Source: an uncultured Lachnospiraceae bacterium
GTDB lineage: Bacteria; Bacillota; Clostridia; Eubacteriales; Anaerofustaceae
Direction: 5' to 3'
Assembly (NCBI GenBank): GCA_964644555.1
Contig: CAZXWI010000001.1
Span: forward strand, 1-53,106
DNA: 53,106 nt
Shown here: piece after piece, positions 11,391-40,302 of the stretch
Numbering within the stretch: position 1 is the stretch's first letter
Layout of the letters: each line of letters begins with the position of its first letter
The notes under the pieces: model-generated
What the model saw: the letters and a program-made list of their open reading frames with translations, nothing else
Told to the model about the DNA's origin: nothing
The model's database searches: none
Translations under genes and position numbers: made by a program

Positions 11391-12275
11391 TTATCTTGTT
11401 CTGAACCATGTTACATCCGAACTTGTAGGAAGAAGGAAATAATAGCCTCCGTCCTTCTCTGTAAGGAATGAGTTAACATTTTTTCTGAACTGCTCTTGAT
11501 TTACCAATTCGGGATAGTCCGTGGCATTAATAAGATCTTCGTAAGCAGCTTCCTTTGTGGGATACCATTTATCCCAGCCTTCATCTACTTTTGTGATATG
11601 CACCTCAATACCCTGTTCTTCCAAAACTTTTTTAAGGCTCGGACCATGCATGGGCAGCTTGTCGCTCATATCTATAGGACCACGACCTCCGAAAAGCTCT
11701 GTTTTTTCACCGGGTTTGGGTTCTGGTCTTTTTCTTTCTCGATCAAAAGGTCTTAAATCGGGGTGAGCCTGCATTGCCTCTTCGGAGTAACAATCTGTGA
11801 AGAGTTTACCTCTCGATTCGGGCAAACAAGGAGCGCCGTCCGACCACATAACGCTTACGGCAAATTGTCTTGCAGCCTTTTGAAGCATTTTAAGCGAGCT
11901 TGGGCCTCCGCCACCTCTTGACTGAATTACAACATCAACTTCCGGTATGGTAGTTCCGATTTCCGTTTCCTGCCAATCGGCATAAACAAATTCAACATTG
12001 GTTATACCTGCGGCTTCGCAGTTTTTTCTGCATTCTTCAAGCATACCCTCGGAGTTATCAAGGCAAATAACTTTTTTTACTCTCTTTGCAGCCTGTATTG
12101 CCACTCGTCCAGGGCCACAGCCGCAGTCCAAAACTACCATGTCTTCCGTAAGAGGCATTGCATCTAATTGCAAATTCGTTCCGTTTACTTCCATCAAAGT
12201 CATAAAGCTGTAGCCTCTTGCAGCTTTATCCCACATACTGGGTTTGACAGGAGTAGCTATTATGGTTTCTGTCAT
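11391..12275 (-). CDS. Class I SAM-dependent methyltransferase with uncharacterised C-terminal domain
   Basis: SAM motif I VLDCGCGPGRVA and post-I acidic residue (CLDNSEGM). The start was moved to the MTETII ATG (12275) because the longer ORF overlaps the upstream gene by 23 nt. Confidence 0.75.
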   Translation of the reverse strand: MTETIIATPVKPSMWDKAARGYSFMTLMEVNGTNLQLDAMPLTEDMVVLDCGCGPGRVAIQAAKRVKKVICLDNSEGMLEECRKNCEAAGITNVEFVYADWQETEIGTTIPEVDVVIQSRGGGGPSSLKMLQKAARQFAVSVMWSDGAPCLPESRGKLFTDCYSEEAMQAHPDLRPFDRERKRPEPKPGEKTELFGGRGPIDMSDKLPMHGPSLKKVLEEQGIEVHITKVDEGWDKWYPTKEAAYEDLINATDYPELVNQEQFRKNVNSFLTEKDGGYYFLLPTSSDVTWFRTR

Positions 12276-12291
12276 TTTTATTTTTCCGTTT

Positions 12292-13116
12292 CTATAATAG
12301 ATTCCAATTACCAACCGATTTTCTCACATCAGTAAATCCGTACTTCACAAAATCGGTATTTAAAAATTCCTTTAAAAATTCTTCGGCAGCTTCCTTATTC
12401 TGTGCATTATCGGGTATTACCGCCGCATGAAATATAGTTGTGCCGAATATTTCGTTTCCGCCGTCAACAACAAAAGACACCTTGTTATACTCTTCTTCGA
12501 AATTTTCATCCCCCAAATTCATAACTTTCGGCAAAAGAGCATAATTAAAATTGTTACCTACTGCGGAACTTCGATAGGATATCTGATATACATTATCTTC
12601 GCACATTGGGGCAAATGCCTTATGCTCAGGCTTTTTATTATCGGGCTTTCTGTTTCTTTCGTACTGCTTTCTGTCTAAGCCCTTATAATTTGGGTTTGAA
12701 AATATTCTTTCGCTCAAACCATCTTCAACCCTATCCGCAAGCTTGATTGCCATAACGGCTCTGTATCCGCTCGGGTCGTCGTAAGGGTTCATATGTTTTA
12801 ATGTTGCCTCATCTGAGGTAAGCTTTTCAGCCCAATTATCATCATTTACATCATTTCCCACAACAACCATCTCATTTCCGCCCCAAATGTAGTATCCGCT
12901 ACAATATTCGGGCATCATCAATTGCTTGATGTTGCTGTCATCGGCAAGGAGCATCAAATCGAATTTTTCGCCTGATAAAAGCTTGTTGATACCGCCTGTA
13001 GAGCCGCCCATAATAAGCTCGCACTCCATATCGGGGTTTTCTTTTTTATAACGCTCTAATGTTTCTTTGGCAATTTTTCCACATACACCTGCGCTGAATA
13101 TTCTAAGCATTTTCAC
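12292..13116 (-). CDS. ModA/WtpA-like periplasmic-binding-protein-fold protein lacking a signal peptide (predicted cytoplasmic)
   Basis: Type-II PBP-like blocks (IMGGSTGGINKLLSGEKFDLMLLADD, DPSGYRA) resemble oxyanion-binding proteins. There is no hydrophobic N-terminus or lipobox. Confidence 0.6.
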   Translation of the reverse strand: MKMLRIFSAGVCGKIAKETLERYKKENPDMECELIMGGSTGGINKLLSGEKFDLMLLADDSNIKQLMMPEYCSGYYIWGGNEMVVVGNDVNDDNWAEKLTSDEATLKHMNPYDDPSGYRAVMAIKLADRVEDGLSERIFSNPNYKGLDRKQYERNRKPDNKKPEHKAFAPMCEDNVYQISYRSSAVGNNFNYALLPKVMNLGDENFEEEYNKVSFVVDGGNEIFGTTIFHAAVIPDNAQNKEAAEEFLKEFLNTDFVKYGFTDVRKSVGNWNLL

Positions 13117-13126
13117 CTCCGTATAA

Positions 13127-13897
13127 CTAACAGACTATGCAAACATTTCGTTTGGCATCTTCGTCATATACAGTTTTAATATCGAGATTATATAATGACG
13201 AAAGCATTTCCTTATTTAGGGTATCAGCCGCATGCCCCACACCCAATACACCGTTTTTGTCAAGTATTGCAACTTTGCCGTCAAGTATAATTGCGTGATC
13301 CGGATTATGTGTAGTCATAATTACGGCATACCCCTCTTTCGCAAGTTCTTTTACCATTTGCACAACACGATATTGATTGCCGTAATCAAGATGTGCCGTT
13401 GGTTCATCAAGCAAAATAAGCTTGGGCTGTTGTGTTAAAGCTCTTGCTATGGTAACTTGCTGACGCTCTCCCCCCGATATTTCGGTATAAGCTTTGTCCT
13501 TAAGATGAAGTATATTCATTCTCTCCAGGGATTCTTCGGCTATCATATAATCCTCTTTTGACGGTTTTGAGAATGTTCCGATATAGGGTGTTCTGCCCAT
13601 AACGGTAAATTCCAATACGGTATATGCATAAGCAGGAGTATGTATCTGCGGCACATATCCTATTATTCTGGCAACATCGTTCATGCTCATTGAACTTGAA
13701 TCTTTACCGTTTAAATATATATGTCCGCTTGCGGGTTTAAACAGATTCGCAATGCAGTTCAGCAAAGTGGACTTGCCAGCACCGTTTGTTCCCAAAATGG
13801 ACAGAACCTCGCCCTCATCAAGCTGAAAACAAACATCATGAAATATAGTTCGGCTGTTATAATATTTGTAGCTTAAATCTTGTACATCAAGTATCAT
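13127..13897 (-). CDS. ABC transporter ATP-binding protein, FepC/BtuD (type II importer) family
   Basis: Walker A GTNGAGKST, signature ISGGERQ, Walker B LILLDEPT. 4-nt overlap with the permease gene. Confidence 0.9.
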   Translation of the reverse strand: MILDVQDLSYKYYNSRTIFHDVCFQLDEGEVLSILGTNGAGKSTLLNCIANLFKPASGHIYLNGKDSSSMSMNDVARIIGYVPQIHTPAYAYTVLEFTVMGRTPYIGTFSKPSKEDYMIAEESLERMNILHLKDKAYTEISGGERQQVTIARALTQQPKLILLDEPTAHLDYGNQYRVVQMVKELAKEGYAVIMTTHNPDHAIILDGKVAILDKNGVLGVGHAADTLNKEMLSSLYNLDIKTVYDEDAKRNVCIVC

Positions 13898-14940
13898 GTC
13901 AAAGTCCTGTTCTGTTTAATTAAAATGAAAATAAAGAAAGGTGCGCCGATTATACCCGTCAATACGCCCAATTTGAGTTCAGCCGTAGATAATGTTCTGC
14001 AAAGCATATCTATTATAAGCATAAAGATTGAACCCAAAAGCATTGCCATAGGAAGCATTTTTTTATTGTCAGAGCCGATAAGCATTCGGGATGTGTGAGG
14101 TATTATCAAACCTACCCAGCCGATACTGCCCGAAACACTTACGCAACTTGCGGTTATCAATGTTGAAAAGAAAATAAACATTCCTCTGGTTTTTTGAAGA
14201 TTGATTCCCAGTGAACGTGCTTCGTTATCTCCCAAAGACAAAACATTGAGTCGATAACGCATTAATATAATCAAAAAGCACGGTATCAACACCATCGGCA
14301 ATATCGACAAAAGTTCCGACATGGTTATTGTGGCAAACGACCCCATTGTCCAATAAGTGATTTCCGCCAATTGAGTATCGGTATCAGCCAAAGCTTTTAT
14401 TACACTCATTACCGATGACATAAGGCTGCTTACCACGACACCGGATAAGATAAGTATCGTAGTGGATTGACTTTTAATCAATTTCGGAATGAGCGTTGTA
14501 ATAAATACCGCCGCAATTCCTCCAATGAATGCCAAAAGCTGAATAAAGAGGCTGTTGAAATTCAATAAAATAGCAACTGCCGCCCCTATGCACGCACCGG
14601 ATGAAACCCCAAGTAAATCGGGGGATGCCATCGGGTTTTTGAATATGCTTTGATAACAAGCACCCGATAAAGCAAGCCCTGCCCCTACGACTACCGATGT
14701 CAATGTTCGGGGTAAACGCAGATTAATTACCACAGCTTCCTCGATATTCGACCATGTTTTTTTAATGCCGAAAATTTTTGATGCCAAAATTTTAATTACA
14801 TCACCCAAATTAATGCTGTATCGCCCAAGTGCAAGTGATGCGGCTACCGTCAGTAACAGAGCCGCAAACACTATGCCGACAACAACCCGATATTTTTTAT
14901 CGGAAAAATTTGTGGATTTATTGTCAATTGATTTTTTCAT
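13894..14940 (-). CDS. FecCD/BtuC-family ABC importer permease
   Basis: About 10 TM helices and conserved FecCD blocks (RLPRTL, GAGLALSG, NPMASPDLLGVSSGA, TGIIGAPFFI). Confidence 0.9.
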   Translation of the reverse strand: MKKSIDNKSTNFSDKKYRVVVGIVFAALLLTVAASLALGRYSINLGDVIKILASKIFGIKKTWSNIEEAVVINLRLPRTLTSVVVGAGLALSGACYQSIFKNPMASPDLLGVSSGACIGAAVAILLNFNSLFIQLLAFIGGIAAVFITTLIPKLIKSQSTTILILSGVVVSSLMSSVMSVIKALADTDTQLAEITYWTMGSFATITMSELLSILPMVLIPCFLIILMRYRLNVLSLGDNEARSLGINLQKTRGMFIFFSTLITASCVSVSGSIGWVGLIIPHTSRMLIGSDNKKMLPMAMLLGSIFMLIIDMLCRTLSTAELKLGVLTGIIGAPFFIFILIKQNRTLT

Positions 14941-14961
14941 TGTTAAGAATTAAAAGTAAAA

Positions 14962-16077
14962 TTAGTTAAGTTCCTGTGTTCCATCAGGAAGCAAACCGTT
15001 TAACATATTGTTAGCCTGATCTTTTGTAAGCTCAGTGCCGTTCATTGTTTTGTAAAAGCTAATGATCTGCTCTGCCATGTAATCTTTTGTTATGCCGTTA
15101 GCTTCTGCGATTTCAGGCTGGATGCACAATAAAGCGTAATCTACCTGCAAGTAGCTTTCAAGTCCGAATCTATCCCAGTTAAAGCATGCATAGGGGTTGT
15201 TGTAAACTCTGCCGTTCTGAACTGCTTTGAGGTCTTTCCAACCGTCTGATGTTGCAATCTGTTCAAGAAGCTTATGCTGATATACGCCACCAACGATGAT
15301 AACATCAGGGTTTGCAGCAAAGATTTCTTCAACTGTGATTTCGTTGCCGGCAAGATTGATAACTGCAGGTAAGTATTTACCTCCGTTTGCTTCAACCCAG
15401 TTCTGAATAATTGTATTCTGACCCATTGTAGCTGTAAGGCTGTCGCTCTGACCGGAAATGTACATAACTACAGGTTTGTCTTCATCTGCCACATTTGCAA
15501 CGAGGTTTTTGTTGTTTTCAATCTTTGTACCGACTTCTGTACACCACCAGGTGAGTTTTTCTTTGTATTCACCGCCCAAGATTTCAGCGAGCATTGTGTA
15601 TGCCTGAATCATTGTATCGTAGTTACTGAAGTTGATGTTGATTGCGGGAATACCAGCATCTCTGATCTGCTGAGCGTATCCGTCTTTAGCTGATGAAGGA
15701 TGCACGATTACCAGGTCCGGTTCGAGTTTAACGAGTTCTTCAACTGCGGGAGTTGTTCCGCCGAGGCCCTGAATTTCAGTACAACCTTCGTAGAAGAATT
15801 TTGTCCAACCGTTCATTGTTGCAGGTGTGTTCATTGCAAGACCGCTTACGAGGTCTCCTGCACCCATGACAAAGAATGAAGATGTACCTGCAGGCCAAAG
15901 GTTAACGATTGTTTTTACTTCGCCCTCGATAGTTACTTCATCACCGCTCATGTCGGTTACTGTGATTGTTCTGTTTGTAAGATCTTCTTCATTGTTTTTG
16001 GAGCTTGTGCAGCCTGCAAAAACGCTTAAAGCAATAAGAACAACTAATAAAACAGAAACTATTTTTTTCGTTTTCAT
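14962..16077 (-). CDS. Lipoprotein substrate-binding protein of BtuF/FhuD (class III PBP) type
   Basis: Signal peptide with lipobox FAGC. Two-lobe PBP blocks (LEPDLVIV, ANPDVIIVGG). Strong RBS AAGGAGAA. Confidence 0.85.
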   Translation of the reverse strand: MKTKKIVSVLLVVLIALSVFAGCTSSKNNEEDLTNRTITVTDMSGDEVTIEGEVKTIVNLWPAGTSSFFVMGAGDLVSGLAMNTPATMNGWTKFFYEGCTEIQGLGGTTPAVEELVKLEPDLVIVHPSSAKDGYAQQIRDAGIPAININFSNYDTMIQAYTMLAEILGGEYKEKLTWWCTEVGTKIENNKNLVANVADEDKPVVMYISGQSDSLTATMGQNTIIQNWVEANGGKYLPAVINLAGNEITVEEIFAANPDVIIVGGVYQHKLLEQIATSDGWKDLKAVQNGRVYNNPYACFNWDRFGLESYLQVDYALLCIQPEIAEANGITKDYMAEQIISFYKTMNGTELTKDQANNMLNGLLPDGTQELN

Positions 16078-16309
16078 ATTGTTTTCTCCTTAGGTTTTAT
16101 ATTTAAATATCATATCGATATTTAGGCAAAATAAAATGGGTTCCCGTAGTATATAAAATTTTACATACTAAAAAGGAACCCACAGTGTGCGTAAATCAAT
16201 AATATTTCACTTGCAGTATTCCTTTCCAAATACGGGAGGCAAACAAATTTCTTAGTTTACCCATCGGTTATTTTCCTTGGTCAAAGCTTTAGGAATAATA
16301 ACTCGGAAT
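16078..16309 (-). promoter_or_regulatory. Long 5' leader with internal intrinsic terminator (candidate riboswitch or attenuator, class unresolved)
   Basis: On the minus strand, GGGTTCC-TTTT-TAGTAT...ATACTA-CG-GGAACCC is followed by ATTTTATTTT, ending about 50 nt before the start codon. Upstream AAAGGAA can pair with the TTCCTTT of the terminator 5' arm. Confidence 0.45.
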
Positions 16310-16315
16310 AATTTC

Positions 16316-16344
16316 ATTATACTTAATATTCCAAAATGTTGCAA
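16316..16344 (-). promoter_or_regulatory. Sigma-70-type promoter of the importer operon
   Basis: TTGCAA (16339-16344), 17-nt spacer, TATAAT (16316-16321) on the minus strand. Confidence 0.55.
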
Positions 16345-30920: not shown

Positions 30921-30962
30921 AAAAGACCTTCGTATATTAAATTACAAAGGTCTTATTTTTAT
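30921..30962. terminator. Bidirectional terminator (ECF S gene / hydF-containing operon)
   Basis: Stem AAGACCTT/AAGGTCTT (30923-30954) with a T-run 3' on the plus strand and an A-run 5'. Confidence 0.7.
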
Positions 30963-31042: not shown

Positions 31043-32257
31043 TTACTTATTTTTCTCTTTCAAATAATCTTCGTACAAATCGGGAAGAACTTTGACTCCT
31101 CTTTCCAATATGCCATTCATATACGCAATAGCCAAGCCATAATTCGTCATCGGCACATTTTGGTCAAAAGCACATTTTGTGCGGTATACAAGCTCTCTTG
31201 TGTTGAGCATACAGCCTCCGCAGTGCAAAATAAGCGAATATTTGCTTAAGTCATCCGGAAATCCCGTGCCGCTTGAAAGCTCTATATCAAAATTTGCATT
31301 TGTTCTTTCTTTAAGCCAATGCGGTATCTTGACGCTACCGATGTCATCGCATTGCCTGTGATGAGTGCAGCCCTCCGCTATAAGCACGGTGTCGCCGTCT
31401 TTAAGCCTGTCGATTGCCGTAACCCCCATAACGGCTTCTCTTAAAAAGCCCTTGTGCCTTGCAAGCAATATCGAAAATGATGTAAGAGGAACATCATCGG
31501 GAGTAAGCTTTGAAACAAGCCCAAACACCTGAGAGTCCGTAATTACCATTTTGGGCTTTTTCGATAAAGATTCCAAAGTTTTACTAAGTTCTGTTTCTTT
31601 ACACATAGCAACGATTGCATTCGCATCTAACACATCACGCATCATCATTTGCTGGGGTAGTATCATTCTGCCTTTAGGTGCCGAAGAATCTATGGGAGTA
31701 ACCAAAACCACAATATCCCCATCAGACAACAAATCTTTTACCAAGGGAATCTCTTCATCGTTCGGTTTAAGATAAGCAAGCTTTTCTTTTAATTCGTAAA
31801 TTCCTATATTTTTTTCGGCACTGACATATATTTCATTTTCGCTTGGCTCAGAGTGGTTCGGTTTCATCTCGCATTTGTTATAAGCAATAATATAATTTAT
31901 TTTTTTATCCTCAAACAGCGAAACAAGCTCCCTATCAAGAGAAGTGATTCCCTTTTGTATATCCACCACCAAAACTGCGATATCCGTTTTATTCAGAACC
32001 TGTTTTGTCTTTTTCACTCTCAAAAGACCGAGTTCGCCCTCGTCATCATACCCCGGAGTGTCGATTATCATAACAGGCCCTAACGGCAAAAGCTCCATGG
32101 ATTTGCTCACAGGGTCGGTGGTCGTGCCTTTAGTGTCGGAAACAACCGCCAAATCCTGATTGGTAACCGCATTCACAAGGCTTGATTTTCCTGCGTTTCG
32201 AAGCCCGAAAAAACCTATATGAACCCTCTCTGCCGAGGGTGTATCGTTAAGCCCCAT
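31043..32257 (-). CDS. hydF: HydF-type GTPase ([FeFe]-hydrogenase H-cluster maturation scaffold family)
   Basis: GTPase G1 GLRNAGKSS, G3 DTPG, G4 NKCE. The C-terminal cluster motif EGCTHH...HCGGC matches the HydF CxH...HCxxC signature. Confidence 0.85.
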   Translation of the reverse strand: MGLNDTPSAERVHIGFFGLRNAGKSSLVNAVTNQDLAVVSDTKGTTTDPVSKSMELLPLGPVMIIDTPGYDDEGELGLLRVKKTKQVLNKTDIAVLVVDIQKGITSLDRELVSLFEDKKINYIIAYNKCEMKPNHSEPSENEIYVSAEKNIGIYELKEKLAYLKPNDEEIPLVKDLLSDGDIVVLVTPIDSSAPKGRMILPQQMMMRDVLDANAIVAMCKETELSKTLESLSKKPKMVITDSQVFGLVSKLTPDDVPLTSFSILLARHKGFLREAVMGVTAIDRLKDGDTVLIAEGCTHHRQCDDIGSVKIPHWLKERTNANFDIELSSGTGFPDDLSKYSLILHCGGCMLNTRELVYRTKCAFDQNVPMTNYGLAIAYMNGILERGVKVLPDLYEDYLKEKNK

Positions 32258-32286: not shown

Positions 32287-33390
32287 TTATTTGAATGCAG
32301 CAGCATCTTTGCCCGGTGAGAATATCTTTTGAGCCTGCTCATCGGTAAGGGTAATATCGAATACCGCTTCGTAATAATCTTTTGTTTCCTGAGTTATATC
32401 AATATCGCTGAAAATTTCGGGATAAACGGTTTTTGCAAGCCACATGAGCGTAACAGGAGTATCTACTCCGCAAGTATAACTTCTGTACATACCAAGGGGC
32501 ATTTTGCTTACCTTATTGTTTTCAACTGCGGCAATTCCGCTCCAATCAAAGCTGCCTATAGTATTGTTGTATAAATCATACGGCAATGCCTGGTTAAAGT
32601 TGGTAATAAGTATTCTGTCGGGATTCCATGTGTATACCTGTTCAAGGTTTACCTGAGTTGAATAAGCTGTTTCCATTTCTTCGCCGACATTTTTTGCGCC
32701 AATGGCATCAGCCCACCATTGTCCAAAGAATTTTTTGCCCGATGTGGTTATCATTGTGTCGTTATATTGGAAAAGGAAAAATACTTTTTCTCTCTCTTCG
32801 TTCGAAAGTGATGCCACTCTTTGCTGAACGAAATCATACTTTTCTTCGCTGTATTGTTTAACAAGATCGGCTCTGTCGTTTTCGGGGAATAATTCCGACA
32901 AAAGAGCTATCCAGTTGTTAAGAGTTTCTATTGCATCATAATCCCATTTGCCTGCCGAAATTCCTATAGCCGCAAAGCCCGCATCTTTAAGCTGAGTACC
33001 TATCTGTTCGGATTCGGCACTGTAGAATACAACATCGGGATCAAGTTTGATTATTTCTTCGATATTGATATTAGTTCCGTCAATAAATGCTGTCTGTGCA
33101 TTTAAAATTTCAGGATATAATTCCGATAAGAGGCTGTTCTGTGCGGCACTCATGCTCGGCTGAGCAATACCCACCAATTTTTCCGCAGAATCAAAGAATA
33201 CAGCCAAAACCGACGGAAGCGGATAAATATCGCATACGACTATACGCTCGATATTTTTCGGCACTTCCACCTCATTGTCAGCATGATCGATAATGGTTAT
33301 GGTGTCGGAAGAATTATTTCCGTTCGTTGTGCAACCGAATAACCCAATTACGGTTACTGCTACCAAAAGTAAAGCAACTAATTTTTTCAT
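32287..33390 (-). CDS. Lipoprotein substrate-binding protein of BtuF/FhuD type (paralogue of 14962-16077)
   Basis: Signal peptide plus lipobox FGC. Blocks LDPDVVFY and WNPDRILITN. ATGA overlap with the upstream K-like gene. Confidence 0.85.
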   Translation of the reverse strand: MKKLVALLLVAVTVIGLFGCTTNGNNSSDTITIIDHADNEVEVPKNIERIVVCDIYPLPSVLAVFFDSAEKLVGIAQPSMSAAQNSLLSELYPEILNAQTAFIDGTNINIEEIIKLDPDVVFYSAESEQIGTQLKDAGFAAIGISAGKWDYDAIETLNNWIALLSELFPENDRADLVKQYSEEKYDFVQQRVASLSNEEREKVFFLFQYNDTMITTSGKKFFGQWWADAIGAKNVGEEMETAYSTQVNLEQVYTWNPDRILITNFNQALPYDLYNNTIGSFDWSGIAAVENNKVSKMPLGMYRSYTCGVDTPVTLMWLAKTVYPEIFSDIDITQETKDYYEAVFDITLTDEQAQKIFSPGKDAAAFK

Positions 33391-34529
33391 TCTAAATTTC
33401 TCCTTACAAATTCATTAAAATTTTCTACCAAATTAGGTATTTCTTTTCTGTAAATTCTGCCCGAAAAAGCTTCGTGCGGCAAATTTACGAATTTCGCACC
33501 CGTTGGACAAATGGGTTTATACATCTTATCCGCAATGATGATTTTTGCCTTTTCCAAGTGCGGTATTATTTCATCTTCATCGATAGCCGAAATGCATCCG
33601 TCTCCGATAAAAATGTCATCAATGTCAGTGGCGCAAATTACATTTGCACCGTATCCCGAATGATAATAAAGTGCATTGGCTAACGAAAGCGAAGTAACAC
33701 CTTCTCCGATTATTACCACATCGTCATTCACAAATGTTTTCGGAAGATAGTTTTCTTTAGTTTCAGCCGATAATTTTATCTTATCTATAATATTATCGCT
33801 GAACTCATCACCGTATAAAGCACCTACAACATACGGGATATTAAACCTTTTCTCTAATACTTTTGCGGCTCTCATTGCACAGGACGAAACTACCAAATTT
33901 ACCTTTGCATGTTTTGCTTTAATCATATTCTCGTATGTGTCATTCATTGCCCATACAGAATTGACTTTGATATTGTTTTTCTCAAGTTTTTTTCTTAAAG
34001 ATATATCAGAACCGTTTATCGAAAAATCAAGGGGAGTAACGCCCAAAATGTTTACGCTGAGTTCATCAGATGCCACTTCGTCATCACTGCAAATTCTCTC
34101 GGCAAATTGCTCAAATGCAAGATCTGCTCCTCTGACATACGAATGCATTCCATCGGTTGGAATACCGAATGAAATTATTCCGGTATCTTCTTGTATTTCA
34201 CGGGCTATTGCAGGAATATCCACTCCCGTCATCATCGGTATGGGAGTGCCTGCTATGGCAATGAATTTCGGCTTAAGCACCTCGGCAGCCTTTTTTATAT
34301 CAGATATCAATTTGTCATCATCGCCCAATATTGCTTCGGTTTCGGTTATTGCCGAAATATATACCATGCTGTCCATGTCGTACCATCTCGGTTCGTCATG
34401 GGTGCCGTATGTGGAATTGCACCCTGATGCATCATGCATTATGCACATACCGCCCAATTCGTATAAAGCAGAACATACACCCGATGTATCCGAAGCATAT
34501 GTGGATATTATTTTAGCTGTTTGTTTCAT
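33387..34529 (-). CDS. Nitrogenase component-1-type oxidoreductase subunit, NifK/NifN/BchB-like (380 aa)
   Basis: MHDASGC block resembles the H-G-x-x-G-C motif of the nitrogenase component-1 family. Start set at the ATG forming an ATGA overlap with the upstream stop, with GGAGGG 7 nt upstream. Confidence 0.8.
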   Translation of the reverse strand: MKQTAKIISTYASDTSGVCSALYELGGMCIMHDASGCNSTYGTHDEPRWYDMDSMVYISAITETEAILGDDDKLISDIKKAAEVLKPKFIAIAGTPIPMMTGVDIPAIAREIQEDTGIISFGIPTDGMHSYVRGADLAFEQFAERICSDDEVASDELSVNILGVTPLDFSINGSDISLRKKLEKNNIKVNSVWAMNDTYENMIKAKHAKVNLVVSSCAMRAAKVLEKRFNIPYVVGALYGDEFSDNIIDKIKLSAETKENYLPKTFVNDDVVIIGEGVTSLSLANALYYHSGYGANVICATDIDDIFIGDGCISAIDEDEIIPHLEKAKIIIADKMYKPICPTGAKFVNLPHEAFSGRIYRKEIPNLVENFNEFVRRNLE

Positions 34530-35848
34530 ACACACCCTCCGCAGCCTAAACCCTTTTCGGAAATGAAAGTTTTAACATCTTTTGCATTTTCGTAAGCATC
34601 ACAAAGCATTTCGGCAAATTTGATTATTCCGTCAAAGGCATACAACCCGCCGTCCTCCACGATATTCACAAAATACTCTGTCGATGTAAAATATGCCGCC
34701 TTTTGCCCAATCGCCAAAACTTTTTCTTTTAAGTTGCGGTTTATTCTTCGCATTGATGTATGTATGCTCGGAGCTAAAATCATTTCCGGGGAAATGTTTT
34801 TTAGAATCTCAAAGTCCCTCTTTTCATCTGCAGTAACAGAATCCAGATACACCTTTTTTACATTAAAACCCTTTTTAATTAAAAGTTTAGCTAAACTGAG
34901 TGGTCTAGAAAACGCCGTGTAATCAATAACTATAGGTGTATCGCCTATCAAATCAAGCGCTTTTGCCAAAATTTGGTCGCACTTTGTTATTTCAGGAGAG
35001 TAATCTGGCATACTTACATTAAGAGCATTTGTAAGAACACTTAAATTATCAATAATTTCGTCATAATCAAAGCTAAAGGGCAAATACAAATGGGTCTGTC
35101 CGAATCTTTCGTTTAGGTACTCACCTGCTGTTTTGGCAGCCGGGAATGTGCTTATACATATTGAGCATTCTGCCATTTCAAGGTAATCTTCAAAATTTTT
35201 ATAATCCTGAATCTGCATAAGCTTATATCCGTTGTCGGTTACAAGCTTTGCAAGTTCGCTGTTGTTACTGACGGCAAAATCGCCTCCGACTATGCTAACA
35301 GCTTTTTTATTTATATCTCTTTCTTCGAGCAAGCTATATAGCCGCCTTCTCATAAGTTGATCGGGGGTGAGTCCGCTCTTTCTCATAATGGGGTTCATAT
35401 AGCAGTCGGTAAAACGAACAGTGGGAAACAATCTTCGAAGTTCGGAAAGCACGATATCCAAATCCGTCCCCATAAAATGATGCACACAGCTTGTAAACAA
35501 AAGTACTGCGGGAGGAAGTGTATTAAGCTTATTTAGTATGTCGGTAACACCATCTATTATCAAGCTTTCCATATCACCGTCAAGCACATTTTGTTCTCTT
35601 ACGGCAATGGTGGAAAACCTGTCTGACAGCCCCATTTCAGCCGCAGTTAAAACGACTCCTCTTAGACACCCCTGAGCACACACGAATATTTGGTGAGCCT
35701 CAGGCACAAGCATACCCGTATGCACAATATTCCATGTACCTCTGGCAGGAGCGGAATATTCCAATCCTGTGTCAAATAATTTCGGCAAGCTCGCATCTTT
35801 TATTTTAATATTCGGTTCGTCAATAATTTCGCCGATTTTTTTTAACAT
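34526..35848 (-). CDS. Nitrogenase component-1-type oxidoreductase subunit, NifD/NifE/BchN-like (440 aa)
   Basis: FVCAQGC block aligns by eye with the HGPxGC motif. Further Cys motifs FTSCVHHF, TDCYMNP and ECSICIS; C-terminus ends CGGCV. Start set at the ATG one nt after the NifH-like stop, with GGAG upstream. Confidence 0.8.
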   Translation of the reverse strand: MLKKIGEIIDEPNIKIKDASLPKLFDTGLEYSAPARGTWNIVHTGMLVPEAHQIFVCAQGCLRGVVLTAAEMGLSDRFSTIAVREQNVLDGDMESLIIDGVTDILNKLNTLPPAVLLFTSCVHHFMGTDLDIVLSELRRLFPTVRFTDCYMNPIMRKSGLTPDQLMRRRLYSLLEERDINKKAVSIVGGDFAVSNNSELAKLVTDNGYKLMQIQDYKNFEDYLEMAECSICISTFPAAKTAGEYLNERFGQTHLYLPFSFDYDEIIDNLSVLTNALNVSMPDYSPEITKCDQILAKALDLIGDTPIVIDYTAFSRPLSLAKLLIKKGFNVKKVYLDSVTADEKRDFEILKNISPEMILAPSIHTSMRRINRNLKEKVLAIGQKAAYFTSTEYFVNIVEDGGLYAFDGIIKFAEMLCDAYENAKDVKTFISEKGLGCGGCV

Positions 35849-35849
35849 A

Positions 35850-36605
35850 TCATTCTCCGCATACACTTATTATTTCATTTGCCAAAATTTCATATTGCTT
35901 TGCCATTTCACTTTCGGGGAAGGCTTCTATGACGGTCTTGCCAAGAGATTCGGCTTCCAAAACAATATCACTTCTATCAAGCGAACCTATTATTCTCGAA
36001 TTTATATCCGAAGCAAGCTCTTCGACCTTTTCGGTTTCGTTTTTCACATTTCTTCTGTTTAAAATAAGCCCACCGAAAGAGGAATACCCTCTTTTTTTGA
36101 ACCCTTCTACGGCAACGGCAATGTTAGCCGCCGCATGAAGCGACATATTTTCTCCCGATGTAACCACAAACACATGCTGAGCGTATCCCGGACGCATGGG
36201 CATTGTAAATCCACCGCATACTACATCACCAAGAACATCGTACAATACTATATCCGGCTTATATACTTCGTAAACGCCTTTTTCTTTAAGCTTTTCCAAT
36301 GCAGCGATTATCCCTCGCCCTGCGCAGCCGGTTCCCGGAGTAGGACCTCCTGCTTCCACGCAAATGACACCACCGAAACCAAGCCTTAACATATCATCAA
36401 GCTCAAAATCATTGCCATTTTCTCTTACCAAATCCAGTACCGTAGGTATTTTATTCTCCGAACGAAGAAGTACAGTGGAATCTGCTTTCGGGTCGCAGCC
36501 TATTTGCATTACTTTATATCCTTTTTTAGAAAGTGCAGCCGCCACATTCGAAACCGTAGTGGATTTGCCTATTCCGCCTTTTCCGTAAACAGCGATTCTA
36601 ATCAT
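35850..36605 (-). CDS. NifH/BchL/CfbC-family ATPase (nitrogenase iron-protein-like)
   Basis: P-loop [10 protein letters not shown], switch I CDPKADST, both 4Fe-4S Cys contexts ([13 protein letters not shown]). Confidence 0.9.
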
Positions 36606-37665
36606 TGACTTCTCCTTTTATGTAATCTTTATGATCTCCTCGGTCGCACACTACCTCGTAGCCTATCTGTGCCATTTGCTCTTTTAATATATTTATTCCC
36701 AATTCGGCAGTCAGATCCGTGCCGACCTTGTTATCGTAGAGCATATATTTTTTTCTGACATCACTCGGTGATATGTTCGGCATAACAACATTACATCCAC
36801 ACAACACTCCCAATTTTCGACCGTCGGCATTTGCAGTGCCGAGTGCCGTAGTAGCAGGCAAAAGCACATCGGGCAGCATAATTCGAGTTAAGCTCATTAA
36901 AAATAATGTAAGGCTCACATCTCCGCAAGGTTCTGAGCCAAAGGGGGTATCTTTATGAGAAATGAACGGTCCAATACCCACCATAGCAGGAGAAAATTCC
37001 CCTATAAAGAGCATATCCTTTGCCAAATTCTCAATGCTTTGGTATTTAACCCCCACCATAAATCCACAGCCCACCTGATAGCCTATTTCTTTTAAGTCAT
37101 TTAAGCATCTCATTCTGTTTTCATATTTTTGGTAGGCAGGGTGTATTTTTTCGTATAAATCTTTATCTGCCGCTTCGTGCCTTAAAAGATATCTGTCGGC
37201 ACCCACATTAAAAAGTTTTTCATATGAATTACGGCTGAGTTCACCCACCGACAGAGTAATGGCACAGTCGGGGTATTTCTTTTTTATATCGGATACAATA
37301 TCGCAAAGAATCTCATCTTTGTAATATGTATCCTCACCGCCTTGCAATACGAATGTGCGAAATCCATATTCGTAACCGATATCACAGCACGATAAAATAT
37401 CGTCCTTAGTAAGTCTGTAGCGATTGGCATTTTTATTGGAATGACGAATACCGCAATAGTAGCAATCGTTTTTGCAATAATTGGTAAATTCTATAATGCC
37501 TCGAAAATATATTTTCTTTCCGAATCTATCCACCGATATCTTTTGAGCAAGCTCGGAAGCATAATCAAAGTCCTGCTTGTCGTATGACGATAACAGGTGA
37601 GTCCATTCTTCAAAGCTCAAGCATTTTTCTTCATTCAATTTGTTGATAAGTTGTTTATTATTCAT
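36598..37665 (-). CDS. hydE: Radical SAM enzyme of the HydE/BioB/PylB clade (HydE-like)
   Basis: [13 protein letters not shown]3CX2C motif at about residue 65, GGE block (LQGGED), GCGFMVG block; about 355 aa. Start set at the MNNKQL ATG (37665), which overlaps the ATPase stop. Confidence 0.7.
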
Positions 37666-38749
37666 CGACACCGCACCTTTTTTGAGCAAATGTTGTTTTT
37701 ATGCTCAAATTTCCCAATATACTTAGTCTGTGAGTTAGCACCTCGGCTTCGCTCTTGGGAGAATCCAAGGTAAAGTTAATGATGTACACTCCTGCTTCCC
37801 TATATGGGATACCCATTCTGCCGATAACATATTGGTTATAAGCATGAATTTCCTTGTTGATTTTATCAGCTAATTCATAGTCGCTGAAAATTACGGCAAC
37901 AACGGCTATGACATTTTCCGAGTCATCTATTTGCTTATCTGCCTTTTTATCATCGGAAATTTGTAAAGGCATTATGTTTTTATATATATTTTCTTCCGTT
38001 TCCACTTCTCCGATAACAGCCTTAACTCCGAATACCGATTCGATATTTTCTTCCGTAACTATTTTTGCGGTTTCTCCGAAAACAGCTTCACCGTTTTTCG
38101 GTAGGAGCAATGATTTATCGGCTCGGGAAAGTGCATGAGTCGGATAATGCGTATTGAAAATGCATCCTATATTTTCACTATGAGCTAATTCCGACATGGT
38201 ATTTAACACGATAAGCTGATTTCTGAAATCCAAATTAGATTCGGGCTCGTCCAAAATCAATAGCTTGGGTTCGTTTATCAATGCTCTGGCTATCAACACC
38301 ATTTGAAGCTCGCCGCCGCTTATTTCGTTGCATTTTTTACCCGTTAAATAGGATATGTTGAGCCTTTGCATTAATCTATCGACTTTCTCATAATCTGCCT
38401 TTTTCGGCTGAGAGAACACTCCTATTTTATCGGCAAGACCCAAAAGGATCATATCTTCCGCTTTCATTGACGATGAAGTGCCCTTTGCTTGCGGCACATA
38501 AGAAACATTTTGCCAAAATTTCTTTTGGTTCATTTTGGAAATGTCCTCGCCGTCAAGAGTGCTTAACCCTTTGCTCCATTTCAAAAATCCCATTATGCAC
38601 TTGAGCAATGTAGTTTTACCTGCTCCATTAGGGCCTAAAACTGCAACCAGTTCCCCCGAATTTAGTGTAAAATTTAAATTTTTGATTATATATTTTTCGC
38701 TTTTATATCCGAAAGAAGCGTTTTCTACACATAGCTTCATAATTGCCAC
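37658..38749 (-). CDS. ABC importer ATPase (FepC/BtuD type) with C-terminal TM1266-like domain
   Basis: Walker A GPNGAGKTT, signature ISGGELQ, Walker B LLILDEPE. The last approx. 90 aa (VIAVVAVIF...VIGRMGIPYR...) are homologous to the 87-aa protein at 39743-40006. Confidence 0.85.
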   Translation of the reverse strand: MAIMKLCVENASFGYKSEKYIIKNLNFTLNSGELVAVLGPNGAGKTTLLKCIMGFLKWSKGLSTLDGEDISKMNQKKFWQNVSYVPQAKGTSSSMKAEDMILLGLADKIGVFSQPKKADYEKVDRLMQRLNISYLTGKKCNEISGGELQMVLIARALINEPKLLILDEPESNLDFRNQLIVLNTMSELAHSENIGCIFNTHYPTHALSRADKSLLLPKNGEAVFGETAKIVTEENIESVFGVKAVIGEVETEENIYKNIMPLQISDDKKADKQIDDSENVIAVVAVIFSDYELADKINKEIHAYNQYVIGRMGIPYREAGVYIINFTLDSPKSEAEVLTHRLSILGNLSIKTTFAQKRCGVDE

Positions 38750-39753
38750 CCCTCGGAACGCCTCATTAATGTGATAAAGAATGGAGCTCCGATAATTGCC
38801 GTCAACACCGATATGGGTATTTCCGCAGCCGAAACGCTCCTTGCCAAAGTGTCAACTATAACCAGAAAAGTCCCTCCTAAAATGACCGATGACGGCATTA
38901 ATAACAAGTGGTTATTGCCAAAGAGCATTCTACACATATGCGGTATCAAAAGCCCTACCCAACCGACCTGACCGCACATGGAAACGCATGAAGCGGTAAT
39001 GCCGGTGGAGCACAGAACGCAAACTACCCTGAGTAAATTGATATTAACTCCCGTGGCACGAGCCTCTTCTTCGGAAAGAGGCAAAATATTAAGCCGCCAG
39101 CGCATTAACAAAAGAATAGTTATTCCGATTATTATTATGGGCGAACCCAACAATAGCGATTTATAATTGGCAGCCGATAAATTACCCATAAGCCAATATG
39201 TTATTTCGGGTAGTTCACTTTCCACATCGGCGGTAAATTTCACCAAAGATATCAATGCCGAAAATAGAGAACCTATCATTATTCCTGCCAAAACCACATT
39301 GCTCAAGGCACTTTTTGACTTACTTTTGCCCGAAAGCACGGTAAGCACTACAGCAAGAATGCCGAAAAACAACGATACAAATTGAACTCCAATGAGTTCG
39401 AATCCCAAAAGCAGACCTAAAGCCGCCCCAAATGAAGCCCCCGATGCCACACCCAATGTATCGGGGGTTGCCAAAGGGTTATTAAATAGGCTCTGAAAAG
39501 TGCATCCTGCAGCAGAAAGCCCGGCTCCTGCCAAAAATGCGAGCAATATTCTCGGAAAGCGAATACTCCATAAAACCCGCTCCGTTTGATTTGATAACAC
39601 TTCTCCTCCGAATATGTGAACCTTAATCGATAAAATAACATCCCCTACCGATACATTCATTCGCCCTATGCATAAACAGCACAGTATAGTGAAAACAGGC
39701 AAAATTATCAAAATAATCTTTGATAATAAAGACATTTTGTTACTACTTTTCAT
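38737..39753 (-). CDS. FecCD/BtuC-family ABC importer permease
   Basis: FecCD blocks RFPRIL, GAGLSAAG, NNPLATPDTLGVASGA, TAIIGAPFFI. Start uncertain: 39789, 39753 or 39735. 39753 gives an 11-nt overlap with the upstream gene. Confidence 0.85.
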   Translation of the reverse strand: MKSSNKMSLLSKIILIILPVFTILCCLCIGRMNVSVGDVILSIKVHIFGGEVLSNQTERVLWSIRFPRILLAFLAGAGLSAAGCTFQSLFNNPLATPDTLGVASGASFGAALGLLLGFELIGVQFVSLFFGILAVVLTVLSGKSKSKSALSNVVLAGIMIGSLFSALISLVKFTADVESELPEITYWLMGNLSAANYKSLLLGSPIIIIGITILLLMRWRLNILPLSEEEARATGVNINLLRVVCVLCSTGITASCVSMCGQVGWVGLLIPHMCRMLFGNNHLLLMPSSVILGGTFLVIVDTLARSVSAAEIPISVLTAIIGAPFFITLMRRSEGWQL

Positions 39754-40006
39754 CTTTGTAAACAACTCCCGAATATGCCGTTTTGGCACTTATTCCGTTA
39801 AGGCGACCTATTTTACCGGATATGGCGCTTATTATATCCTGTGGTGCATCAACCGCAACACTCAAAATATTGATTCCTCTCTTTCGATACGGAAGTCCCA
39901 TTCTGCCTATTATATATTCGCCGTATTCGTGAAGTATCCCATTGAGAGATTCCACCGAATCCGTATTTTCTACTATAATTCCTATGACGGCAATTCTTGT
40001 TTCCAT
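39743..40006 (-). CDS. TM1266-family small protein ('iron-only hydrogenase system regulator' family, ACT/NikR-C-like fold)
   Basis: 87 aa, RIAVIGIIVEN...IIGRMGLPYRKRGINILSVAVDAP pattern. RBS AAGGAG 7 nt before the ATG. Confidence 0.7.
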   Translation of the reverse strand: METRIAVIGIIVENTDSVESLNGILHEYGEYIIGRMGLPYRKRGINILSVAVDAPQDIISAISGKIGRLNGISAKTAYSGVVYKDEK

Positions 40007-40145
40007 ATTCGCTCCTTAAAAAATAAACTGCACCCTTAAAGATGCAGTTATCCCTTAGCATTGCTACAACGTTGTAACTCAAAAGAAAAATTATTTCTGC
40101 ATCTTCCATCTCAAAACGAATTTTCAATGTTAGAATACTTATTTA
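40007..40145 (-). promoter_or_regulatory. 5' leader with mutually exclusive terminator and antiterminator hairpins
   Basis: Minus-strand RNA has AACTGCA-tctttaaggg-TGCAGTT followed by TATTTTTT directly before the RBS. Upstream AAGATGCAG (40097-40105) is perfectly complementary to CTGCATCTT (40039-40047). The palindrome TACAACGTTGTA lies between them. Confidence 0.5.
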
Positions 40146-40182: not shown

Positions 40183-40246
40183 TTAATTTTTTTCAACGAG
40201 ATTAATTTAACGCTCAAAAGCATTTACAATTTCCGATAAAATAAAT

Positions 40247-40269
40247 AAAAGGCAGTAAAACTGCCTTTT
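40247..40269. terminator. Terminator ending the sugar ABC operon
   Basis: AAAAGGCAG-TAAAA-CTGCCTTTT, symmetric A/T flanks, about 35 nt past the stop at 40303. Confidence 0.75.
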
Positions 40270-40302
40270 ATTTTAATATATTTAAAATCAGCAAAATGTT
40301 TT

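Follow-up and report, generated by a model that had tools for sequence, protein, structure and literature searches.

In a 53,106-nt window from an uncultured Lachnospiraceae bacterium (assembly GCA_964644555.1, contig CAZXWI010000001.1), three tightly packed, co-directional open reading frames (ORFs) at 33387–36605 on the minus strand encode a nitrogenase-like (NFL) trio: a NifH-like Fe protein (H) and two component-1-like subunits (D and K). The first-pass annotation located this trio correctly and left out six operon partners, the genes most informative about function. The trio is the center of a nine-gene operon running from 40006 to 31043 on the minus strand; its partners are a small TM1266-family protein, the permease, ATPase, and binding protein of a type II ATP-binding cassette (ABC) importer, and the [FeFe]-hydrogenase maturases HydE and HydF (Table 1). 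Reading frames within the operon overlap or abut, including those of hydE, which lies between the ATPase gene and H. The D/K and K/binding-protein pairs share ATGA, and these start/stop overlaps indicate co-translation. D probably starts at an ATG at 35848, six codons past the GTG, as in homologues, giving 440 aa; K probably starts at an ATG at 34529, which creates the ATGA overlap with the D stop codon.

Table 1. Genes and boundary elements of the nine-gene operon, in transcriptional order. The last column counts the related loci that keep each partner, among those with a complete upstream (52) or downstream (61) flank.
Feature	Position	Strand	Evidence	Kept in related loci
Bidirectional terminator-like hairpin versus upstream sugar-ABC genes, probable operon boundary	40243..40273			
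TM1266-family small ACT/NikR-C-like protein, first gene	39743..40006	minus	TIGR03959, 112.8 bits (cut-off 60.8)	49/52
FecCD/BtuC-type (type II) ABC importer permease	38737..39789	minus	Pfam FecCD, 1.3e-82	49/52
ABC ATPase with C-terminal TM1266-like domain (residues ~281–352)	37658..38749	minus	ABC_tran, 7e-34; TM1266-like, 5e-15	49/52
HydE, [FeFe]-hydrogenase H-cluster radical S-adenosylmethionine (radical-SAM) maturase	36598..37689	minus	TIGR03956, 533.8 bits (cut-off 254.6), full-length 1–340/340	36/52
H, NifH-like ATP-dependent Fe protein	35850..36605	minus	251 aa; Pfam Fer4_NifH, 1.3e-87	
D-like component-1 subunit	34526..35866	minus	446 aa from GTG; Pfam Oxidored_nitro, 9e-12, 45 bits	
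K-like component-1 subunit	33387..34535	minus	382/380 aa; Pfam Oxidored_nitro, 1.4e-30, 107 bits	
Lipoprotein substrate-binding protein, class III	32287..33390	minus	Pfam Peripla_BP_2, 6.4e-14	58/61
HydF, H-cluster maturation GTPase/scaffold, last gene	31043..32257	minus	TIGR03918, 547.4 bits (cut-off 325.55); Pfam HydF_dimer, HydF_tetramer	33/61
Terminator-like hairpin plus T-run after hydF, probable operon end	30923..30954	minus	Consensus match only	

H is an intact Fe protein, as the first-pass annotation had proposed. The quoted P-loop, switch I, and both 4Fe-4S cysteine contexts are present in the translation, and the P-loop, switch I/II, and both cluster cysteines align with solved Fe proteins. 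H is 47% identical to Clostridium butyricum NifH. Its best match in the PDB is 9fmg_D, the Fe protein of a methylthio-alkane reductase complex (251 bits), with Clostridium pasteurianum NifH at 243 bits and BchL/ChlL chains at only ~150. All NCBIfam scores fall under their cut-offs: nifH (325, cut-off 394), CfbC (316, cut-off 402), BchL (199, cut-off 345), and BchX (160, cut-off 331). Judged by Fe protein sequence similarity, H can be called Group IV-like; the earlier application of that label to the whole trio holds for H only, since D and K match no characterized subgroup.

D and K are short component-1 subunits, as noted earlier, 70–140 residues under NifD and NifK. Single-sequence searches with D returned no NCBIfam match and only spurious phmmer matches in the PDB. 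A family profile of D, compared with known chains, places NifE closest (1e-15), followed by VnfD, the methylthio-alkane reductase chains 9d9u/9fmg, and ChlN. The K family profile matches NifD, NifE, BchB, and NifN, and the CfbD NCBIfam model matches K at 42 bits (cut-off 268). AlphaFold2 models were predicted with mean confidence (pLDDT) of 87.6 for D and 83.4 for K, and Foldseek searches with them matched only nitrogenase, NifEN, DPOR (dark-operative protochlorophyllide oxidoreductase), and Mar component-1 chains, at E ~1e-14, far beyond chance. The D model is equidistant from alpha- and beta-type subunits, with alike template modeling (TM) scores of 0.56–0.64 to NifK, NifN, NifE, MarD, and BchN; the best score for K is 0.70, to BchB. 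We infer that D and K assemble as a heterotetramer. In a 90%-clustered protein collection, D has more than 4,000 homologues and K more than 7,700, mostly unnamed or called “nitrogenase component 1” or “oxidoreductase” and derived from Clostridia metagenome-assembled genomes; clustering at 50% leaves 846 representative relatives of D, of which 249 reach E ≤ 1e-30.

A genuine, minimal N2-fixing nitrogenase would account for the intact NifH-like protein, its identity to C. butyricum NifH, and the conserved H-D-K gene order. The remaining evidence excludes it for practical purposes, in agreement with the earlier description of a divergent homologue that does not fix N2. Neither ligand of the iron–molybdenum cofactor (FeMo-co) is kept in D, where the alpha-275 equivalent is Thr/Phe and the alpha-442 equivalent is Val; the cysteines close by, C234 and C237, are kept in only 7–17% of orthologues. 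Half of the P-cluster cysteines are absent, and both component-1 subunits are shortened. The trio missed all nitrogenase equivalog models in NCBIfam, and tblastn with NifD, NifK, NifE, and NifN-B of C. butyricum found no match in the window. Neither the window nor the flanks within 10 kb of the trio in 80 related loci hold a recurrent nifB, nifE, or nifN.

We scored ligand positions with hhalign in local mode at low mact, as global mode gave erratic near-zero probabilities for several pairs, and counted cysteine conservation over 76–77 orthologues from GTDB genomes. All motifs quoted in the first-pass annotation (FVCAQGC, FTSCVHHF, TDCYMNP, ECSICIS, and CGGCV in D; MHDASGC in K) are present in the translations, and the HGxxGC-type cysteines do align with P-cluster ligands, at positions other than the alpha-Cys62 and beta-Cys70 first assigned to them. 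FVCAQGC in D aligns with GPIGC of NifE, within the NifE/NifD GPxGC block, and with SRTC of BchN, which makes C67 the alpha-Cys88 equivalent; TSCVHHFMGTD aligns with STCIVGVIGDD, which makes C127 the alpha-Cys154 equivalent. In K, MHDASGC aligns with HGSQGC of NifN/NifK, so that C39 is the beta-Cys95 equivalent; this residue also falls at the Asp36 position of BchB and lies in an invariant H-D-x-S-G-C...H-D-E-P-R-W segment. Three of the six P-cluster cysteine positions are thus kept. The alpha-62, beta-70, and beta-153 positions lack Cys: beta-153 corresponds to an invariant Pro98 in K, and beta-70 to Ser/Asp, one helical turn ahead of a family-specific Cys21.

In D, C67, C127, and C155 are present in 100% of orthologues and C63 in 99%; in K, C39 reaches 100% and C21 79%. 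Among the further D motifs singled out earlier, FTSCVHHF (C127) and TDCYMNP (C155, in a conserved C155-x-M-N-P) are therefore invariant and the CGGCV tail cysteines are kept in 86–95%, whereas those of ECSICIS (C234, C237) are kept in only 7–17%. The simplest reading of invariant C63, C67, and C127 together with K C39 is a DPOR-like 3+1 arrangement, and we favor one inter-subunit [4Fe-4S] cluster per D/K interface, predicted to be held by three D cysteines and one K cysteine. Of the two relay types first entertained, the 4Fe-4S type is thus preferred, and a P-cluster appears unlikely from the ligand pattern. The D tail, in which K438, G439, G441, and two cysteines are conserved within this family (hereafter family 1), is a candidate arm for handing on metal or a cluster. 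Its last eight residues, GLGCGGCV (34526–34552), are predicted to be disordered, with pLDDT below 50.

The best NCBIfam matches of the permease are BtuC/FhuB/FecC-like, all under cut-off and with BtuC as the top model, and the second-best model for the ATPase is a heme ATPase. The binding protein matches PDB entry 4ovk (1.9e-45), HI_1472 (1.2e-20), and then iron, nickel, and B12 binders, and has a weak match to the IsdE (heme) model (3.2e-12). The TM1266-like product is recognized by Pfam (TM1266-like, 8.9e-32) and by PDB entry 2nzc (9.7e-11). In the 240-nt operon leader, no Rfam family reached its gathering score. A hairpin with a 10-bp stem and a T-run at 40026–40049 (minus strand), just upstream of the TM1266-like start and likewise without an Rfam match, could from its sequence be an attenuator.

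We scanned one genome per GTDB species and obtained 80 loci with D identities of 50–59%. Hosts comprise Oscillospiraceae, Lachnospiraceae, Ruminococcus, Blautia, Intestinibacter, Mogibacterium, Erysipelotrichia, Clostridium thailandense, and Loigolactobacillus rennini, and gene order is alike throughout: TM1266, permease, ATPase, HydE, H, D, K, binding protein, HydF. Where both flanks are complete (45 loci), all three transporter genes are kept in 43 and HydE or HydF in 36. All-against-all clustering of flanking ORFs within 10 kb in 81 loci yielded no recurrent HydG, HydA/hydrogenase, or NifB/E/N, and the recurrent clusters beyond the nine core genes are shadow ORFs. Tetrapyrrole-pathway genes are absent from the 80 loci, bch/chl genes from both window and loci, and sulfur-metabolism neighbors from the related loci.

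Two members of Loigolactobacillus (Lactobacillaceae), L. binensis (L108 86-16508) and L. rennini (L072), have the complete cluster, HydE and HydF included. The L. binensis locus holds a single H, permease, and ATPase—the last again fused to a TM1266 domain—alongside six tandem binding-protein genes, two D/K pairs, HydE, and HydF, so that D/K copy number tracks binding-protein copy number. In L. rennini, a second set of FecCD, ATPase, and binding protein occurs together with a DUF364/DUF4213 “putative heavy-metal chelation” protein.

Related trios occur in two further arrangements. In Clostridium thailandense PL3 (L062 827-12504), a paralogous trio whose D is ~25% identical is followed in overlapping frames by hypF, hypC, hypD, and hypE, which serve Fe(CN)2CO maturation in [NiFe]-hydrogenase, and then by a family-1 trio. 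A metagenome scan with the paralogue recovered the order H2-D2-K2-HypF-C-D-E-TM1266-H1-D1-K1 in 12/12 loci long enough to show it, most of them human gut metagenome loci (including L085, L093, L096, L098, L106, and L107), with no hypA/hypB or hydrogenase nearby. In family 3 (D ~30% identical), found in Anaerotignum, Treponema, Desulfitobacteriaceae, and Lachnospiraceae (L109–L114), the order H-D-K-binding protein(s)-FecCD-ATPase holds in 6/6 sampled loci, and Hyd genes and TM1266 are absent; a DtxR-type iron repressor adjoins 2/6 (L109, L111) and FeoAB 1/6 (L111). Common to families 1–3 are a K signature, H/C-D-A-x-G-C...(F/Y/H)-D-E-P-R-W, and three D motifs, C...C, S-C-x-x-x-x-x-G-T-D, and C-x-M-N-P. 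The GCGxC tail at the C-terminus of D belongs to family 1 only and is missing from the importer-only family 3.

A more distant NFL cluster on the Sporomusa termitida plasmid pSPTER (L082 631-13080) is surrounded by TonB-dependent siderophore receptors, an AraC regulator, an iron ABC importer, and an alpha/beta hydrolase. We considered and rejected it as an orthologue: its H is 62% identical, and its D and K only 18–23%. By sequence it belongs to another NFL family, one whose importer context is similar.

The window trio fits the description of a Firmicutes clade of NifHEN-like proteins reported in 2012, in which NifHEN-like genes adjoin hydrogenase maturation genes in Coprococcus catus (Dos Santos et al., PMC3464626); the correspondence is to the published description, not to C. 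catus sequences. That clade, with Coprococcus catus GD/7 as well as Dorea longicatena as members, was characterized by “2+1 canonical cysteines” and, in C. catus, by “two closely linked copies” and was accompanied by a one-sentence speculation and no operon definition (PMC3464626). Shared features are two D/E-like cysteines (alpha-88/alpha-154), one K/N-like cysteine (beta-95), no FeMo-co ligands, adjacent hydrogenase maturation genes and ABC transporters, and two linked copies in some genomes. The HypFCDE supercluster is probably what these authors saw in C. catus. The family is thus already in the literature, as a clade in that tree and as part of the “pseudo-nifH” problem (PMC8597730); the 2012 remark is all that the literature searched holds on it, with no functional study, operon definition, or ligand analysis. 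New here are the nine-gene synteny, the TM1266 link, the additional invariant cysteines (C63, C155, and the tail), the HypFCDE supercluster statistics, and family 3.

A 2026 review of NFL enzymes (PMC13474568) lists Groups IV-A (Nfa), IV-B (Cfb), IV-C (Mar), IV-F (Isr), V (DPOR and chlorophyllide oxidoreductase, COR), and VI (Elusimicrobia), and does not mention HydE, HydF, or TM1266. In sequence and gene context, the window trio does not clearly fit any of these. With DPOR (BchL/ChlL plus BchNB/ChlNB, Group V) it shares the plan of a two-component ATP-dependent reductase, a 3+1 pattern compatible with the predicted [4Fe-4S] cluster, the C39/Asp36 correspondence, and the closest structural match of K. 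It differs in that H is NifH/MarH-like rather than BchL-like (251 versus ~150 bits), the fourth ligand is Asp in DPOR and Cys in the window K, the first D ligand C63 stands four residues ahead of C67 and not at the alpha-62/BchN first-Cys site, and the hosts are nonphototrophic with no chlorophyll genes. NifH plus NifEN resembles the trio in its component-1 fold, in NifE being the best profile relative of D, in its genomic association with metallocofactor maturases, and in the paired D/K sets of some genomes; NifE, however, keeps three cluster cysteines and the alpha-275-equivalent Cys for the L-cluster, whereas alpha-62 and alpha-275 are not Cys in the window D and no NifB is present at the window locus to supply an L-cluster.

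CfbCD (Group IV-B) likewise does not fix N2, and H scores nearly equally on the CfbC and nifH models (316 versus 325 bits); CfbD is a single-gene homodimer in methanogens, whereas the window encodes two distinct subunits in bacterial hosts. Mar and Isr (Groups IV-C/IV-F) supply the best solved relative of H, the Mar Fe protein, and again do not fix N2. They have P-cluster cysteines, nitrogenase-type clusters, a NifB-like partner, and a sulfur-metabolism context (PMC13474568), whereas the window trio has neither those ligands nor sulfur neighbors, and its adjacent radical-SAM enzyme is HydE rather than NifB-like. Group VI NflHDK, taken here by description, has an NflH beside Group V, at most 4/6 P-cluster cysteines, and many radical-SAM neighbors; the reduced cysteine set is shared, but the window H resembles NifH/CfbC far more than BchL, and the gene context is unlike. 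The characterized [4Fe-4S]-type NFL enzymes all act reductively on tetrapyrrole rings (PMC13474568).

Our favored reading, held tentatively at a probability of roughly 0.45, is an ATP-driven reductase that processes the iron-chelate cargo of the importer and feeds hydrogenase cofactor assembly. H would serve as a homodimeric ATPase of the NifH type, bridged by a [4Fe-4S] cluster, and would deliver low-potential electrons in ATP-gated steps to a D/K complex that would hold one inter-subunit [4Fe-4S] cluster and neither a P-cluster nor a FeMo-co-type cofactor. As substrate it would take what the co-encoded BtuCD/FecCD-type importer brings in, most likely an iron chelate—either an iron tetrapyrrole such as heme or a siderophore-type complex. 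The tetrapyrrole preference of characterized [4Fe-4S] NFL enzymes and the weak IsdE, heme-ATPase, and BtuC similarities favor heme-type cargo; the Sporomusa and DtxR/Feo contexts favor a siderophore-type one. Reduction in the cytoplasm would release or reshape the iron, and in family 1 the product may be handed to HydE/HydF, possibly via the flexible GCGxC tail of D. The TM1266 ACT-like modules, free and ATPase-fused, might respond to a ligand in the cytoplasm and restrain import or expression; other ABC ATPases carry regulatory C-terminal domains.

Two genomic links carry this reading. The linkage to a type II importer looks obligatory across three families, given the joint retention of the transporter genes (43/45), the invariable importer of family 3, the Sporomusa context, and the copy numbers in L. 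binensis. The link to maturases is evident from HydE and HydF scores far above their equivalog cut-offs, from HypF-C-D-E in every sufficiently long supercluster locus, and from the near-constant TM1266 gene. Several observations pull the other way. The 3+1 ligation comes from ~20%-identity alignments and monomer models. The HypFCDE-linked arrangement has no importer, so that import is not obligatory for family 1. Loigolactobacillus is a genus not known for hydrogenases, and its full cluster speaks for a role of HydE/HydF within the NFL pathway rather than for delivery to a hydrogenase; hydE and hydF could also be mere co-regulated neighbors. As to the cargo, 4ovk, the best solved relative of the binding protein, is not known to have a ligand; the second-best, HI_1472, is a molybdate/tungstate binder; and no iron-responsive regulator or riboswitch was seen at the window operon.

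The constancy of maturases in family 1 can also be read as a sign that H and D/K are themselves a cofactor-assembly machine, like NifH plus NifEN: an ATP-dependent scaffold/reductase that builds an Fe-CO/CN synthon, for example by ATP-driven conversion of CO2 to the CO ligand, and passes the unit to HydE/HydF or HypCD while the importer only supplies metal. We consider this unlikely, though it accounts well for several facts. Family 1 is constantly accompanied by TM1266 and by Fe(CO)(CN)-handling proteins—either HydE/HydF or HypF-C-D-E with a second trio—two linked D/K pairs are reminiscent of nifDK with nifEN, D as a profile is closest to NifE, and the GCGxC tail is confined to family 1. The Fe proteins of nitrogenases are able to reduce CO2 to CO, and no anaerobic source of the [NiFe] CO ligand is known. 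Family 3, however, shares the active-site motifs while having the importer as its only partner, so that the ancestral job seems tied to the cargo; C155 apart, no conserved Cys marks a cofactor-binding site; HydG and hydrogenase structural genes were not found nearby; and the known pathways through HydG/HydE/HydF and through HypCDEF are regarded as sufficient in vitro. A bolder proposal along these lines, which we regard as improbable, would make H1/D1K1 the missing ATP-driven step for organometallic iron centers (CO2 to CO on iron, for HypCDEF and HydE/HydF), or else make D/K a new enzyme whose Fe-CO/CN active-site cofactor comes from borrowed Hyd/Hyp maturases, with the paralogous trio as a NifEN-like scaffold.

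Family 3 and its lack of Hyd genes lend themselves to a salvage reductase apart from hydrogenase, in which D/K would reduce an imported tetrapyrrole or organic cofactor (a corrinoid, a heme derivative, or an F430-like compound) in the manner of DPOR, COR, and CfbCD, and hydE, hydF, and TM1266 would merely share its promoter. Such a role matches the ring substrates of the characterized [4Fe-4S]-type enzymes (PMC13474568). It also agrees with the carriage of heme and B12 by type II importers with class III binding proteins, with BtuC as the top permease model, the heme ATPase as second model for the ATPase, and the weak IsdE match, and with the absence of hydE from 31% and hydF from 46% of loci. 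We nonetheless find it doubtful. The association with maturases is seen twice independently, once as Hyd and once as Hyp, and TM1266 is present in 49/52 loci, which makes a chance neighborhood hard to argue; hydE is embedded between the ATPase gene and H by overlapping frames; and neither tetrapyrrole-pathway genes in the 80 loci nor a cobalamin riboswitch was found.

The family is abundant in gut and rumen Clostridia and contributes to the “pseudo-nifH” signal through which nitrogen fixers are overestimated in metagenomes (PMC8597730). Its wiring to an importer, HydE/HydF, and HypFCDE joins NFL reductases, anaerobic iron acquisition, and hydrogenase cofactor biosynthesis, so far studied separately. 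If true, the importer-based reading would add a new ATP-coupled route by which strict anaerobes unlock iron from very stable complexes; an assembly role, if true, would bear on open questions of hydrogenase maturation. About 80 syntenic examples are available, with at least one cultured host (Clostridium thailandense, Loigolactobacillus spp.).

Elsewhere in the window, a molybdenum cofactor (Moco) riboswitch at 16203–16320 (minus strand; 74 bits, gathering 36) directly precedes a second Peripla_BP_2/FecCD/ABC ATPase operon at 11391–16077 (minus strand). We rejected a transfer of molybdate/tungstate specificity from this transporter to the importer of the nine-gene operon, as the two binding proteins are only 25% identical and give no basis for it. 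The Moco-riboswitch operon continues with a homologue of the WtpA-like tungstate-binding protein and a methyltransferase, an arrangement that suggests a MolABC-type class III molybdate/tungstate importer.

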